Assembly: GCA_052168235.1 (NCBI GenBank)
Contig: JBQLZK010000001.1
Span: 160,001-224,000 of the forward strand
DNA length: 64,000 nt
Reading direction: 5' to 3'
Source of the DNA: Thainema sp.
GTDB taxonomy: Bacteria; Cyanobacteriota; Cyanobacteriia; Phormidesmidales; Phormidesmidaceae
A program made the translations under genes and the position numbers. Shown here piece by piece: positions 15,726-20,834 of the stretch (positions are counted from its first letter, which is position 1; every line of letters begins with the position of its first letter). A model generated the notes under the pieces. The model saw nothing but the letters and a program-made list of their open reading frames with translations. It ran no database searches and was not told where the DNA came from.

Positions 15726-15942
15726 CTCATTGTAACGAGCAATTGGCGATGCGGATGATGATGCAGTGGCGAGGCAATTTATTGCCTCGGTTAAATAGGA
15801 TATCAGCGCTGCACGAGGATGATCAGAATGAACACTGCGACGGCAATGGCAACATAGGGAAACCATTGGATTTGGCCTTATTGGCAGTTGCGGGCTTATG
15901 CTGTAAACGTGGTTGTTGAGATGAGGTTATATTTCATACCAC

Positions 15943-16212
15943 TCATGGAAAGTAGCGGTAGAATTCGCGGCGGTGTAGCACTCTCATGACTTCTAACGTG
16001 TCGCCGTTAAGTTCAACTCCAACCCGATAATCACCGACGCGAATGCGATATCGGTTGGGATAGCCTATTAATGCTTTTACATTAGGCAGACTTTGGAGGG
16101 ACTGAGCTGCTGGCAATGTTGTAAAGGCAAGCTCAAAGATTCGCTGATAAGCGGATGAGCCTTTGAGTTTTTTCAGATCTTTCAAAAAGAGCTTCCGATA
16201 CTCAATCTTCAA
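15943..16212 (-). CDS. RelE/ParE family toxin
   Basis: TTG start at 16212 overlaps the antitoxin stop (TTGA); 89 aa MKIEYRKLFLKDLKKL...YRIRVGDYRVG...RVLHRREFYRYFP. Confidence 0.9.
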   Translation of the reverse strand: MKIEYRKLFLKDLKKLKGSSAYQRIFELAFTTLPAAQSLQSLPNVKALIGYPNRYRIRVGDYRVGVELNGDTLEVMRVLHRREFYRYFP

Positions 16213-16442
16213 TCGGCTTCCTCCTCTGCCAAAAACTGAAGCGCATCTTCGCGGCTGAGCAGGGGCGATGTTTTGGCTTCGTCCATCGCTTTGTTTAAGC
16301 AGTAGTCTGCTAAATTTTCGGCGAGATTTTCGAGTGTTTCGTTGCCTTGGGGCATCAGTCGCTGCCAAAGCTCAATGGGAATGACAACGGCCTTGGGATT
16401 GCCGTCAGCGTCGGTGAGATAGTTGATGGCAGGGTTGGTCAT
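16209..16442 (-). CDS. Putative antitoxin of the RelE toxin
   Basis: 77-aa acidic protein (YLTDADGNPKAVVIPIELW...LSREDALQFL) coupled upstream of the toxin. Confidence 0.8.
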   Translation of the reverse strand: MTNPAINYLTDADGNPKAVVIPIELWQRLMPQGNETLENLAENLADYCLNKAMDEAKTSPLLSREDALQFLAEEEAD

Positions 16443-16467
16443 GGCCTAGCCTCCTTTATGTTTTACT

Positions 16468-19185
16468 CTAACGCTGCAAGATGATAATCAGAACACAGAC
16501 AATAATGGCGATGGCAATATAGGGGAGCCATTGGATCTGACCTTGGCGGGAATTGGACTTTGAGGAATAGGAAGAGTTGGGAAGGGATTTTTCCCACCAA
16601 TCAGGCCTTGAATCCTCTTTTTCCAGAAGAGTAGGCATTTTTCGAGGTTGCATCACAATAGTCTGATTGAGATTGTAAATCACTCGTTCACAATCCTTAA
16701 CTTCGTGGTCAAGTTGCAACTCTTCGTAAATTGCTTTTGCTGCTTCGAGATCTTGCTTCGCTGCCCATAGCTCGTCAATTCTGGCGTAAGCTAAAGCTCG
16801 GTTAAATAGATTGGCTGCTTGGCCCCTGGGTGTATCAATCCGTTTCGCAATTTTTAGAGATTGCCCATAGAATTCAATTGCTTTAACATGTTGACCTAAC
16901 GAACTATAAGCAAGGCCAAGATTACAAAGATTAGCAGCTTGCCCATGAAGATCACCAATCTTCCGATTAATTTCTAAGGCTTGTTTATGTAGGTTCACTG
17001 CTTTGTCATATTGGTGCAACGAATGATACGTACTGCCGAGACTACCAAGAGAAACAGCTTGACCATCAAGGTCACCAATCATCTGCGATATCTCTAAAGT
17101 CTGCTGATGCATTTCAATTGCTTTGTCATGCTGACCCAAGGAATTATAAGCAAAGCCAAGATCTCCAAGATTGGCTACTTTGCCTGTGAGATAACCAATT
17201 TCTTGATTAATTTCTAGGGCCTGCTTGTGCAGTGCAATTGCTTTGGTACATTTACCTAAGGAATAGTATGCAGAGCCAAGGTTGCCTAGATTTGTAGCTT
17301 GACCTTTGCGATGGCCGATCTTCTCCATTATTTCTAGGGCTTGCTCGTGCAGTTTAATTGCTTTATCGTATTGATCTAACAAGCGATAGCTTTGACCAAG
17401 ATTGCAAAGATTATGGGCTTGACCTTCAGCATGGCCAATTTCCTGCACGATTTCTAAAGCTTGCTCATGTAGCTCAACTGATCGAGCATATTCGCTTAAC
17501 TCCTTATAGACTATGCCGAGATTGCCTAGATTGGTAGCTTCCCCCCTACGATCTCCAACCTCTCGATGGATCTTTATAGCTTGCTCAAATAGCTCAATTG
17601 CTTTGTCATACTGGCTCAATGAGACATAAGCCACTCCAAGATTGTCGAAAGCAACAGCTTGGCTGTGAAGATCTCCAAGCTCCTGCTCAATTTCCAGAGC
17701 TTGCTTCTGTAGCTCAATTGATCTGGTGTACTGGCTTAATAAACGGTAGGCAAGGCCAAGGTTACCAAGAGCAGCGGCAAATTTCCGCCTTTTCTCCAGT
17801 GTTTTCGGTGGATAATTTTTCCAGGCTGTCGTCAGCCGTTCATAGGTATCTGCCCAAATGCGATAGTAACCTAGCAAGTCAAACCATTTAGTACATTCTG
17901 AGATCGCATCATAGGCAGCTTCATATTTGTCTAGCTCACAGTGATGGTGAAATACAGCTAAATAGTCATCTAAAAACTTCTCAATATCGTTTTGCTCTGG
18001 TTTTAGAGGTAAATAGTCAGTAAAGAACTCAACCGCCTTCTGATGTGCTCCAACCTCCAATTGTCGCTCTTGCAATGTCTTCTCGACAAACTGCCGCATC
18101 AGCGGATGCAATGTCCAGCGATCTTGTCGCTTCAGCAAAAAGCCCTGCATTTCTAATAGTTCCAGATCAGCCTCTGCCACCTGCGGCTGCATTGCCTGTG
18201 CCCGTTCCACATCAAACGGATTCTGATAAACCGACACCTCCAGCAGTGCCGTCTGCAACGTCTCCGATAACTGCTGCAACAAAAGCTGAAAAATCTCCTC
18301 AACCTTCGCTTCCGGATCACCCAAATTGTTCTCAAACAGCCTCTCAAAAAAGCTTAAATCCGTTTCTTTGAGTTGTCCCGCTGCCGTCTGATTCAGCCAA
18401 CTCGCCGCCAAATTCAACAACAACGGATGCCCATCTGCCAACGTCGAAAGCTGCTCTAAATTGACTTCTTCCGATGCAGAAATTTCCTGCTTCTGCAAAA
18501 ACGCCGCCCCTTCCTGCGGTGTAAACCCCGGCAAAACGTAACGAACCGAATCTTCAGCAACAAACCGATTCCGCGTCGTCACCAGAATCATGCTTTTCCG
18601 TCCCCGCTGTTGCCACTGCTCCAAAAATGCCTCAAACAATGGCCGATCTGCCGACTGCTCAATCTCCTCAAGCTGATCCATCACCAGCAGACAGCGGCGT
18701 TCACTCAGCCGATGAATTGTCTGAGTAATTAGCTCCTCGTCTGGAACTGACTCATCCGGAACTAAAAAGCCAATTTCTTGATGTACCCAGCGACCAAACG
18801 TACTGAAAGATGGCTGTTTTTGAAAATTGATCCACAGCGCATAGTCAAACCGCGCTTGAGTAACTTCATACGCCCAACACGCCAACAGCGACTTACCAAA
18901 ACCACCTGCTGCCACCACTTCAGTCAGCAGAACACGATCCGACTGTATCCGCTCCATCAAATTAGCTTGTGGCTGTGTCCGGTCAACCCATCTGTCCGGC
19001 TCACGCCTGGGTAGAATGGGATCAATTTCTGTAACCAGCACCGTGCGCTGAGACTCAATGCGATCGCCAAAATTTGCGGTTCCATGAAACTCACCAAATC
19101 CGTAGTTTCGGGAATTACCATGTCCTTCGATATCAATGTTGACCTTGTTAGGATCAAATTTCGGCGTTTTGTCTTGCCCAGTCAT
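16468..19185 (-). CDS. NLR-like STAND (NB-ARC) ATPase with TPR sensor, N-terminal amyloid-like motif and C-terminal hydrophobic tail
   Basis: Walker A AAGGFGKS, Walker B CLLVMDQLE, ILVTTR, DGHPLLL (GxP), WTLHPLMR (MHD-like); nine 40-aa TPRs; tail WLPYIAIAIIVCVLIIILQR. Confidence 0.9.
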   Translation of the reverse strand: MTGQDKTPKFDPNKVNIDIEGHGNSRNYGFGEFHGTANFGDRIESQRTVLVTEIDPILPRREPDRWVDRTQPQANLMERIQSDRVLLTEVVAAGGFGKSLLACWAYEVTQARFDYALWINFQKQPSFSTFGRWVHQEIGFLVPDESVPDEELITQTIHRLSERRCLLVMDQLEEIEQSADRPLFEAFLEQWQQRGRKSMILVTTRNRFVAEDSVRYVLPGFTPQEGAAFLQKQEISASEEVNLEQLSTLADGHPLLLNLAASWLNQTAAGQLKETDLSFFERLFENNLGDPEAKVEEIFQLLLQQLSETLQTALLEVSVYQNPFDVERAQAMQPQVAEADLELLEMQGFLLKRQDRWTLHPLMRQFVEKTLQERQLEVGAHQKAVEFFTDYLPLKPEQNDIEKFLDDYLAVFHHHCELDKYEAAYDAISECTKWFDLLGYYRIWADTYERLTTAWKNYPPKTLEKRRKFAAALGNLGLAYRLLSQYTRSIELQKQALEIEQELGDLHSQAVAFDNLGVAYVSLSQYDKAIELFEQAIKIHREVGDRRGEATNLGNLGIVYKELSEYARSVELHEQALEIVQEIGHAEGQAHNLCNLGQSYRLLDQYDKAIKLHEQALEIMEKIGHRKGQATNLGNLGSAYYSLGKCTKAIALHKQALEINQEIGYLTGKVANLGDLGFAYNSLGQHDKAIEMHQQTLEISQMIGDLDGQAVSLGSLGSTYHSLHQYDKAVNLHKQALEINRKIGDLHGQAANLCNLGLAYSSLGQHVKAIEFYGQSLKIAKRIDTPRGQAANLFNRALAYARIDELWAAKQDLEAAKAIYEELQLDHEVKDCERVIYNLNQTIVMQPRKMPTLLEKEDSRPDWWEKSLPNSSYSSKSNSRQGQIQWLPYIAIAIIVCVLIIILQR
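16705..17784 (-). repeat. 120-bp-period tandem repeat encoding 9 TPR units
   Basis: Recurring CAATTGCTTT / GCCAAG / ATTTCTA blocks at exact 120-nt spacing. Confidence 0.85.
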
Positions 19186-19274
19186 GACTTTGAATCACCA
19201 AAGTTTGCTGTCCCGTGAAATTCACCAAATCCATAATTTCGGGAATTATCGTGTCCCTCAATGTCAACGTTGAT
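19063..19274 (-). repeat. 81-bp direct repeat (19063-19143 and 19194-19274) encoding the shared signalling motif
   Basis: VNIDIEGHGNSRNYGFGEFHGTANFGD (receptor aa 15-41) versus INVDIEGHDNSRNYGFGEFHGTANFGD (effector C-terminus). Confidence 0.95.
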
Positions 19275-19631
19275 TTCCTTATGGACTTGGTTCTGCTGAC
19301 CAATGTTAATAATCTGTTGCGCCATCTGCTGCACATCCTCAGCAAACTGCTGATTCTCTGGATCTCTTAATTCATAAGCTAGACAAATCTCCAGTTCTTC
19401 TAGTGCAGCCTCAGACTTTTCTTGCTCTACTCGGGTGATGGCCTTTTCCATCCGCTTATTTCCAGTAAAGTGCTGCTTGATCCGTTTCCACAACGCCTCA
19501 ATCTGGCTACCCGCCGTCTTCAACATGGCTGGGGTCGTTATTTCTGCCGCTTTGCCTGCTGCTGCCTCAACAAACTTACTTGCCGCTATGGCAGCGATCC
19601 CCGCTGCCGTTAACGTGACTGGATCAGTCAT
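19182..19631 (-). CDS. Putative Bell/HeLL-like helical cell-death effector with C-terminal amyloid-like motif
   Basis: 149 aa: N-terminal Ala-rich hydrophobic helix MTDPVTLTAAGIAAIAASKFVE, helical core, Q/N-rich linker, and C-terminal motif shared with the downstream NLR. ATGA stop/start overlap at 19182-19185. Confidence 0.75.
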   Translation of the reverse strand: MTDPVTLTAAGIAAIAASKFVEAAAGKAAEITTPAMLKTAGSQIEALWKRIKQHFTGNKRMEKAITRVEQEKSEAALEELEICLAYELRDPENQQFAEDVQQMAQQIINIGQQNQVHKEINVDIEGHDNSRNYGFGEFHGTANFGDSKS

Positions 19632-19813
19632 AGTTTTATATCTAGGTAATGGCTACATTTGACTCATCCCAATTCTGCACAGAATTTCTCTCAGTGTCGA
19701 GAATCGAGGATTAAGCTAGTTGTTATATGTATAGACAAAGCCATTGATACGTTACGGCTAGCGCCTGACACATCCTACGAAGCTACAAAACTTAAAATCT
19801 GGGGAAACAGCAG

Positions 19814-20053
19814 ATGGCTGAAAACATCGTGAAAGTAGACATCTCATTTCAAGCCTTACTCACAGCCGTTCTATCTCTGGAACGCGCTGAGAAGCAGAAG
19901 CTTTGGGAATTCCTGGAAACAGATTTATTTCCAGACGAGGAGGATTCACCCGAAGATCTGGCTGAAATTGAAGCTGCTCGCGCCGACTATACAGCAGGTG
20001 ACTACATCACGTTTGATCAATACGCAGCAGAGCGAGCTAGCCGTTACGAATGA
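19814..20053 (+). CDS. Putative antitoxin
   Basis: 79-aa acidic protein ending AEIEAARADYTAGDYITFDQY; ATGA overlap with the downstream RelE-like gene. Confidence 0.75.
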   Translation: MAENIVKVDISFQALLTAVLSLERAEKQKLWEFLETDLFPDEEDSPEDLAEIEAARADYTAGDYITFDQYAAERASRYE

Positions 20054-20289
20054 CGTACACAATCATTACGCCTAAAGTTGTTCGAAAACAGCTAGATGAC
20101 TTGCCCGATGACGTTTATGAACGTATTGCTCCTAAGATCCAGCAGCTTGCAGAACATCCTCGCCCAGACGGGGTTACAAAGCTGAAAGGAACCGATCGCG
20201 AATATTGGGTTCGTTGTGAAATTGATGACAAGGAAAAAGTGATCTTGCTCTTATAGTGCAAGCACTAAAGAGATATCTACCGGAAGTAG
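20050..20289 (+). pseudogene. Degraded RelE/ParE family toxin
   Basis: The RelE start (MTYTIITPKVVRKQLDDLP...HPRPDGVTKLKG) is present, but the usual YRIRxGDYRV core appears collapsed to EYWVRCEIDD. In-frame stops TAG (20254) and TAA (20266) precede the residual tail CKH*RDIYRK*. Confidence 0.75.
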
Positions 20290-20298
20290 ACAAATTTC

Positions 20299-20325
20299 AA
20301 AAAGGACAGCCAAGATAGCTGTCCT
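20299..20325 (-). terminator. Rho-independent terminator after the ferredoxin gene
   Basis: AGGACAGC-7nt-GCTGTCCT with a T-run on the minus strand. Confidence 0.55.
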
Positions 20326-20345
20326 ATAGCATTCAATCTTTAGCC

Positions 20346-20834
20346 CTAAATATCTTTACTTTGCACAAAATAGGAGCCAATACTGAAGCTGGTATCGCTT
20401 TCCTCAAGCTGCTTTAAGACTGAACGGGTAATTAGCTTCTCTTTTTCGACCAGCACTTGACCTGTGATTGGGTGCAGCAAATCTTGCTCTGCCCGCCGTC
20501 CAATCAGCGCCTCAATATCCTTCAGCGAATTAATATACATACCGGGCGGTAGCTCCACCACCACGCCTTCGCCCTGCACCCGTGCCTGACAGGCCAAGCG
20601 CGAATTGGGCTTGCAGGTGGTAATCACTTCTAACGTACGCTGTTCCCGGCGGTTAATTGGGCTGAGCGAGCCCATGCCCTCTTTCACATAGATATGGCAG
20701 GTGGCGCACATACCCCGCCCACCACACTCTTTCAAAACGTCCAGTTCTTCATCCAGCAGCACAGAGAGCAGGTTGCCGTCAGTTGCGATCGCGGTTTCCT
20801 GAGCAATTGGTTCTAGTCGAACAATTTTAACCAT
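20346..20834 (-). CDS. 2Fe-2S ferredoxin-domain protein
   Basis: ECGGRGMCATCH...RLACQ cluster motif with a C-terminal extension. Confidence 0.9.
   Translation of the reverse strand: MVKIVRLEPIAQETAIATDGNLLSVLLDEELDVLKECGGRGMCATCHIYVKEGMGSLSPINRREQRTLEVITTCKPNSRLACQARVQGEGVVVELPPGMYINSLKDIEALIGRRAEQDLLHPITGQVLVEKEKLITRSVLKQLEESDTSFSIGSYFVQSKDI

Follow-up and report, generated by a model that had tools for sequence, protein, structure and literature searches.

In the fungal NWD2/HET-S, sigma and PP (HELLP) pairs, and likewise in mammalian RHIM signalling, a motif at the N-terminus of a receptor matches a motif at the C-terminus of an effector. For the fungal motifs within-cluster co-evolution has been noted, in that motifs of one cluster resemble each other more than those of orthologues do (PMC3321046). 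A system type of this design has been in print for filamentous bacteria since 2020 (Dyrka, 10.1101/2020.01.06.895854): short Bell proteins and NOD-like receptors (NLRs) carry matching bacterial amyloid signalling sequence (BASS) motifs, numbered BASS1-10, and Leptolyngbya is among the genera named as holding such pairs. In that work fibrils were obtained with BASS1 and BASS3, seeding ran from the NLR to the Bell side, and the authors expect more than ten motif families. Antiphage function in a Bell-type system is reported only for Bab/Agp of E. coli, a BASS11 system that is not of the NLR type and that requires its motif for defence (Ibarlosa, 10.1101/2024.11.07.622273). What is said here of published work follows excerpts of the cited papers; further literature drawn on comprises PMC8086366, PMC9815663, PMC12261475, PMC7889193, 10.1101/2022.07.19.500537, 10.1101/2024.12.17.629029, PMC13506858 and PMC13581612.

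The subject of this analysis is a pair of overlapping genes in Thainema sp. (GCA_052168235.1, contig JBQLZK010000001.1, positions 160,001-224,000 of the forward strand). This stretch of 64,000 nucleotides is called the window, and its own coordinates are used below. An earlier note, made from the letters alone, had proposed the two genes as a candidate NLR-amyloid cell-death pair, and our results support that proposal. By all genomic criteria that can be tested on the sequences, the pair is of the Bell/NLR BASS type, which is not in itself new, and it probably forms a two-gene cell-death module coupled by an amyloid signalling motif. The cassette and the candidate readthrough patterns that we describe in the effector family may be new.

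Gene organization and published criteria

19182..19631, minus strand: Bell-type effector gene, 149 amino acids (open reading frame (ORF), AlphaFold2 (AF2) model, family of 686 representatives)
16468..19185, minus strand: NLR-like gene, 905 amino acids, with motif, NB-ARC/STAND domain, nine 40-residue tetratricopeptide repeat (TPR) units and a C-terminal hydrophobic helix
19194..19274, minus strand: effector-side motif copy, residues 120-146 (26.8 bits against the family profile)
19063..19143, minus strand: NLR-side motif copy, residues 15-41 (18.3 bits against the family profile)
18388..18942, minus strand: NB-ARC domain, NLR residues 82-266 (Pfam PF00931, E 8e-10, above cut-off)
16480..16536, minus strand: predicted C-terminal membrane anchor, NLR residues 884-902 (mean Kyte-Doolittle 2.67)

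Both ORFs of the earlier note were recovered on the minus strand; they are collinear, and the effector stop overlaps the NLR start by 4 bp (ATGA), as is also the case in the type example of Dyrka. The published criteria ask for an effector gene within 5 kb of an NB-ARC or NACHT gene, in most cases collinear with it and either close to it or overlapping, and this is the arrangement found here with PF00931. They further allow 10-150 NLR residues ahead of the NOD domain, and the NB-ARC match of the window starts at residue 82. Finally, they require that the effector C-terminus and the NLR N-terminus align over at least 15 residues with a score of at least 40 (BLOSUM62, gaps 14/4), and the window pair aligns over 28 residues with a score of 145. 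The Bell description itself, a short protein with an all-helical domain of about 100 residues, a hydrophobic N-terminal helix, an acidic residue at position 2-3 and a C-terminal motif of about 25 residues, also applies, and the partner is, as in the Dyrka pairs from filamentous cyanobacteria, a collinear overlapping NB-ARC-TPR gene with the motif in its short N-terminus. Two differences from those pairs were found: the window copies are 89% identical compared with 43-56% for the cross-seeding pairs tested there, and the window NLR ends in a predicted membrane anchor. A scan for promoters and terminators gave counts at chance level (6 against 6.5; 6 against 3.8).

The assignment of the 905-residue protein as an NB-ARC-TPR receptor was borne out by the Pfam NB-ARC match and the TPRs. 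Within the NB-ARC domain there are segments that we take to be like Walker A (92-99), Walker B (166-173), sensor-1 (200-205) and GxP (252-257) motifs, with an MHD-like one beyond it at residues 359-364. Among solved structures, the one closest in sequence is that of the STAND protein PH0952 (6mfv, E 2e-7). The hydrophobic helix within the last 22 residues was missed by the earlier note; it would act as a membrane anchor, and similar tails occur in the NLRs of loci L001, L005, L007, L010 and L040 and not in the other full-length partners listed.

The shared motif

The 27-residue motif that had been proposed for the effector C-terminus and the NLR is present on both, with 24 of the 27 residues identical. 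The NLR was said to begin with it, which needs correction since a 14-residue leader comes first. Among the 24 codons for identical residues, 12 differ synonymously, and only 3 codons of the motif differ in amino acid, so the match is kept at the protein level and does not reflect a fresh duplication of DNA. The matched motif is under purifying selection. A recent DNA duplication of the motif is ruled out by the synonymous changes.

For a genome-wide view, the last 45 residues of each ORF were scored against the first 70 of the next in all adjacent co-oriented ORF pairs (n = 1,094). The window pair is the best of them, with its local score of 145 against a median of 19. Only 4 of the 1,094 pairs reach 40, and the top three are all of this kind (the window pair; a paralogous pair on contig C17, 132; and a pair on contig C104, 55). 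We also built a motif family profile from 35 effector tails, with the window copies left out. The best of 500 shuffles reaches 4.8 bits on this profile, far less than either window copy; 15 of 17 NLR heads of the same class score at least 18.5 bits, and none of 49 other heads scores above 4.4. Because a profile made without them still scores both window copies, the window motif is by sequence a divergent member of a wider motif family, with the consensus form N-I-x-A-x-D-x-A-x-V-N-A-V-G-E-x-N-A-x-T-V-N-F-G-D; the numbered BASS families were compared by description only. When NLR residues 8-60 were searched among proteins of 497-1584 residues, only the query protein was returned, so no close copy of this exact variant is found at the sensitivity of that search.

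The comparison with catalogued motifs that the earlier note had recommended came out negative for BASS3, RHIM and PP: their G-hydrophobic-Q-hydrophobic-G core is absent, neither copy having any Q, and on this sequence criterion the window motif is none of the three. Neither copy matched a Pfam model, including those of HET-s and NACHT_sigma, at E up to 10, in a search whose HMMER filters are weak on queries of 44-52 residues; each window protein has a single motif copy, unlike the HET-s pseudo-repeat. A complex prediction with three effector-motif and three NLR-motif chains scored 0.03 and says nothing either way.

The shared segment could instead be a homotypic docking element, that is, a small folded or beta-strand interface with no self-propagating amyloid. 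Near-identical copies suit any homotypic contact, AF2 leaves the tail unstructured, and the amyloid state of the motif is one that we infer. However, the motif length, the alternating hydrophobic pattern, the G/N content and the terminal positions match BASS-type motifs, and all BASS-type examples tested in the excerpted literature formed fibrils. We consider docking without amyloid improbable, and the amyloid signalling motif is the reading kept below.

The effector protein and its family

The effector starts with MTDPVT (D at position 3), followed by an Ala-rich helix at residues 7-25, a helical core up to about residue 116 and a disordered tail carrying the motif. The structure prediction that the earlier note had called for gave a confident helical core and a disordered tail: in the AF2 model (122 sequences) the block pLDDT is 84-93 over residues 11-110 and under 50 in the tail. 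Fold searches with two models gave a best Z of 5.0 and no Foldseek match at E 0.001, with MLKL, HeLo and Bab unlisted, which excludes nothing; Bab has helices cupping helix 1, and Bell folds vary widely in topology according to the Bab paper (10.1101/2024.11.07.622273). A search of PDB sequences with a profile of the effector family gave nothing under E 0.06.

When compared to the E. coli Bab/Agp abortive-infection system, the window pair shares adjacent genes with a common terminal motif, a small helical effector, a MEPIS-like effector start and a defence-island location. On the other hand, Agp is a TPR-GreA/B-PIN protein and not a STAND ATPase, the Babybell domain has about 80 residues against about 115 in the window effector, and function has been shown for Bab/Agp and is only inferred for the window pair. 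The MTDPVT start is also close to the MDPIT of the antiphage NLRs bNACHT11 and Avast2, but there MDPIT/MEPIS is on the NLR itself, while in the window pair such a start belongs to a second protein, which the shared motif links to the NLR. For Bab, Avast2 and bNACHT11, cell death has been connected with the MEPIS/MDPIT motif, which the MxD/EP-type start of the effector resembles.

The effector has 28 close homologues, its family has 686 representatives at 50% identity, and the named loci are almost all cyanobacterial. An MxD/EP-type start is found in 92 of 150 representatives. Fusions among 121 scanned representatives are to TIR (2), CHAT plus TRADD-N (1), EAD7 (1), GUN4 (3), HEAT (1) and TPR repeats (6), and two of the six TPR-fused proteins are all-in-one proteins of 957-967 amino acids. 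Judged by its length, N-terminal features, distribution and fusions, the effector agrees with the Bell description as far as sequence features go, and the fusions to TIR, CHAT, EAD7, TRADD-N and TPR count in favour of a cell-death module.

Some further arrangements were observed in the family. In L019, L021, L022, L025 and L044 the effector is motif-matched to a short TPR-like protein of up to 175 amino acids, too short for an NTPase domain, and fused versions of the two exist (P0046, P0067). In L053 and L054 the effector domain and motif are fused to a further 340 residues, alpha/beta-hydrolase-like by eye. The Atlas neighbours of the effector are small cyanobacterial and actinomycete proteins, with one cluster carrying PF20701 HetE-N on 26% of its members.

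Motif matching across relatives

Relatives were sampled at 89 loci plus the window, which gave 71 distinct effectors; four of these were left out, since one was truncated, two were fusions and one lacked downstream DNA, and 67 remained. The published pair criterion holds in 51 of the 67 loci, with a cognate median score of 65 and a non-cognate median of 22, so that homologous pairs do retain matching motifs, the absence of which the earlier note had named as a refutation. For 15 loci with related motifs the cognate scores sum to 1,247 compared with 714 +/- 71 when permuted, a sum that 0 of 100,000 permutations reached, with kinship ignored. Motif matching is shown to be pair-specific across relatives. 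A tree of effector cores (FastTree) is taken as supporting colour only, because it was midpoint-rooted, the motif classes were set by our own patterns (L077 is mislabelled) and no clade test was made.

These data also bear on whether the two copies are a mere relic, left when an all-in-one Bell-NLR gene split after a tandem duplication of its linker, with no joint function. All-in-one forms with a single linker motif do exist (P0161, P0175). Nevertheless, only 3 residues distinguish the copies, while synonymous differences are found at half of the codons for identical residues, and matching is seen again, with several motifs that look unrelated, in those 51 loci; we regard a relic as very improbable.

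Paralogous modules and the two-motif cassette

The same genome has an intact paralogue with a differently matched motif, the C17 pair (L001:4819-7874). Between the window and C17 the effector core is 77% and the NLR body 82% identical, while the tail and head are only 40-45% identical. The cognate motif scores are 145 and 132, compared with 51 and 40 for the crossed combinations. The two copies within the C17 pair differ synonymously at 9 of 24 codons, to be set beside 12 of 24 in the window, 36 of 84 in the effector core and 75 of 285 in the NB region between the paralogues. Since the synonymous divergence within a pair is as great as that between the paralogues, neither matched state is a fresh copy. 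The differing motif of C17 would insulate the two modules from each other.

The region of divergence is continuous across the gene junction:

19063..19274, minus strand: two-motif cassette, 212 bp contiguous, including the ATGA overlap; candidate exchange unit (dip in DNA identity against C17)

The DNA identity to C17 is 0.43-0.62 over about 19280-19101, compared with 0.63-0.85 on the upstream side and 0.77-0.95 on the downstream side. One recombination can replace both motifs, since tail and head are contained in a single stretch of 212 bp. The clearest case of exchange is L047 against L048, in which the core is 99% and the NLR body 90% identical while the tail is 42% and the head 38% identical, and the DNA identity goes from 0.93-1.00 before the cassette to 0.53-0.62 across it and 0.80-1.00 after it. 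In the comparison of L013 with L014 the replaced tract is longer and extends into the NLR. These patterns suggest that the peptide pair is swapped as a unit. Concerted fast co-evolution is the alternative to exchange. No account of a cassette exchange was found in the amyloid-motif literature that we looked at, in the excerpts available.

As a separate observation, L047, L048 and L051 are near-identical loci whose differences are limited to the two-motif cassette. The whole genome has 15 NB-ARC matches, 14 of them over the Pfam cut-off, and only three effector-family genes by a broad profile plus a distant one on C104. The latter belongs to the third small-gene/NLR pair (L003:21-853), which shares a different motif of 19 residues; its NLR frame ends after about 125 codons near the contig end.

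In-frame stops and candidate readthrough

A different arrangement was found when 121 distinct effector loci were inspected, a sample enriched by searches with an alignment seeded on the C19 protein of the same genome. In 33 of the 121 the effector stop is in frame with a P-loop NTPase; four of these, with an ATG of their own within six codons, were set aside. The remaining 29 come from about 28 genomes, which represent six or more cyanobacterial families, and include C19 itself (stop at L002:6826-6828, G000:C19), where the open frame continues for 827 codons. Other examples are L023, L075, L076, L081, L088, L097, L114-L116, L119-L122, L124, L125, L136-L138, L158, L159, L165 and L169. The stops are TGA (18), TAG (10) and TAA (1), the P-loop is 50-61 codons past the stop, and the frame after the stop is long and open in most loci (one ends at 101 codons). 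There is no ATG well ahead of the P-loop in 26 loci, and in 14 of the 29 the first 30 codons after the stop are free of ATG, GTG and TTG. A second motif copy is absent from 28 loci (score under 40), and the last one scores 40.

Downstream of these stops is a hairpin with a 5-bp stem, in which positions 9-13 after the stop pair with positions 22-26. Pairing holds in 143 of 145 cells, and at three of the pairs both sides have changed. When the register is slid the count is 21-63, and none of 5,000 column shuffles attains 143 (mean 126), with kinship ignored; in 22 non-redundant sequences the count is 108 of 110. A C directly follows the stop in 25 of the 29 loci compared with 22 of 83 other loci. 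The full stem is found in 4 of 87 other loci, and all four continue in frame, three into NLR-like sequence that is soon broken and one to the contig end. A scan of the genome for the pattern gave 19 matches, of which only C19 is located between two long in-frame segments.

Taken together, these features suggest programmed stop-codon readthrough, by which both a free effector and an effector-NLR fusion would be made. Three other explanations were considered. Selenocysteine insertion is unlikely, with no SelA match in the 99.99% complete genome and 11 of the 29 stops being TAG or TAA. Re-initiation at the codon following the stop would explain some of the loci only (CTG in 14, GTG in 1 and non-start codons in 14), and independent nonsense mutations do not account for a fixed stop position and a covarying stem. 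No description of such a readthrough element in bacterial immune genes was found by literature search. In a tRNA cluster there is a tRNA-like gene (G000:C38:26305-26377) whose anticodon is CTA (amber) and whose acceptor stem is mismatched; it may be a pseudo-tRNA or a suppressor.

On balance we lean towards a picture in which the effector family has two interchangeable ways to provide both partners with the motif: the swappable two-gene cassette, as in the window, and a single frame interrupted by a stop, made leaky by a conserved hairpin 9 nt downstream. In the former, one recombination step would rewire specificity and give orthogonal channels within a genome; in the latter, one mRNA would yield the free effector and a minor effector-motif-NLR fusion with an identical seed.

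Genomic island

15748..20352, no strand: accessory island, 4,605 bp, GC content 0.458 (genome 0.500); flanks nearly adjacent in congener G171
16209..16442, minus strand: RelB-like antitoxin (PF18506, E 2e-16), also present downstream of the C17 NLR
15943..16221, minus strand: ParE/RelE-family toxin of a type II toxin-antitoxin system (PF05016, E 9e-10)
15805..15880, minus strand: remnant 3' end of another NLR gene, coding for the membrane tail (88% identical over 73 bp to the C17 NLR end)
19814..20256, plus strand: second antitoxin-like ORF and a short, probably truncated ParE-like ORF (PF05016, E 0.03, below cut-off)

The pair is located in an island absent from congener G171 and flanked by a DNA polymerase I-like and a 2Fe-2S ferredoxin-like gene, whose names were assigned by eye. 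The NLR remnant past the toxin-antitoxin pair suggests replacement or duplication at the site. The C17 copy has the same antitoxin downstream, with the toxin gene internally deleted. The first ORF of 19814..20256, which is antitoxin-like, has no Pfam match.

Proposed mechanism

While gene layout, selection and covariation are shown by the present data, every biochemical step of the following scheme, including amyloid formation and killing by the window pair, is carried over from related systems, namely the BASS1 and BASS3 experiments, Bab/Agp, bNACHT11 and the Avs sensors. Both proteins would be made from one mRNA through the ATGA overlap. The TPR array would bind a signal of foreign origin or of damage, with a phage protein the likeliest candidate; the TPR sensors of other STAND proteins (Avs) are described to bind phage proteins. 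The STAND domain would then oligomerise and crowd the N-terminal motifs into a beta-arch amyloid seed, which the C-terminal anchor would place at a membrane. The seed would template the effector tail, and the effector would free its N-terminal MTDPVT helix, attack the membrane and kill the infected cell, with the rest of the filament spared.

The same wiring might have another output, a developmental or stress step in the filament such as programmed fragmentation or dormancy, in place of antiphage abortive infection. Bell/NLR pairs are concentrated in multicellular bacteria, where their outcome is a hypothesis in the published accounts, the trigger is not established, and no plasmid or phage record matched the effector. 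Still, the family is patchy, with members in 42 of the 173 genomes of the order, the congener lacks the island, the neighbours of the pair are toxin-antitoxin genes, and the TPRs diverge faster than the NB-ARC domain between the paralogues (154 of about 320 against 64 of about 350 aligned residues differ). These four features fit conflict systems, and we find a developmental output unlikely.

Several points weigh against the cell-death module. Reviews, in the excerpts used, still treat the function of NLR/Bell pairs in filamentous bacteria as a hypothesis. With 3 F, 1 Y, 3 D, 2 E and 2 H the motif has more aromatic and charged residues than expected from the published description of BASS motifs, which reports enrichment in Q, N, G, V and I (10.1101/2020.01.06.895854), and it lacks Q. 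The effector has no match of weight in Pfam, NCBIfam or PADLOC, no Bell model in Pfam or NCBIfam matched it, no direct sequence link was found from it to any named Bell protein, and its helix 7-25 is only moderately hydrophobic (1.41). Among the relatives, 16 of the 67 loci miss the pair criterion (7 of the in-frame-stop class, 6 near misses and 3 without an intact partner), 13% of non-cognate combinations score at least 40 because motif families are shared, and the loci compared are not independent of each other. We regard the cell-death module coupled by the amyloid motif as probable.

Implications

For a system predicted in filamentous bacteria since 2020, with function shown in the excerpted literature for the non-NLR Bab/Agp alone, this genome is a clean natural experiment on motif specificity. 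It has two paralogous modules whose motifs match within and not between the pairs, and therefore an amyloid specificity code can be tested directly by cross-seeding and swaps. The cassette pattern provides a simple answer to how two motif copies change together. The readthrough class, if true, would amount to a new bacterial recoding signal; it would also account for the many Bell genes that seem to have no receptor-side motif and for their NLRs that appear start-less in annotation.

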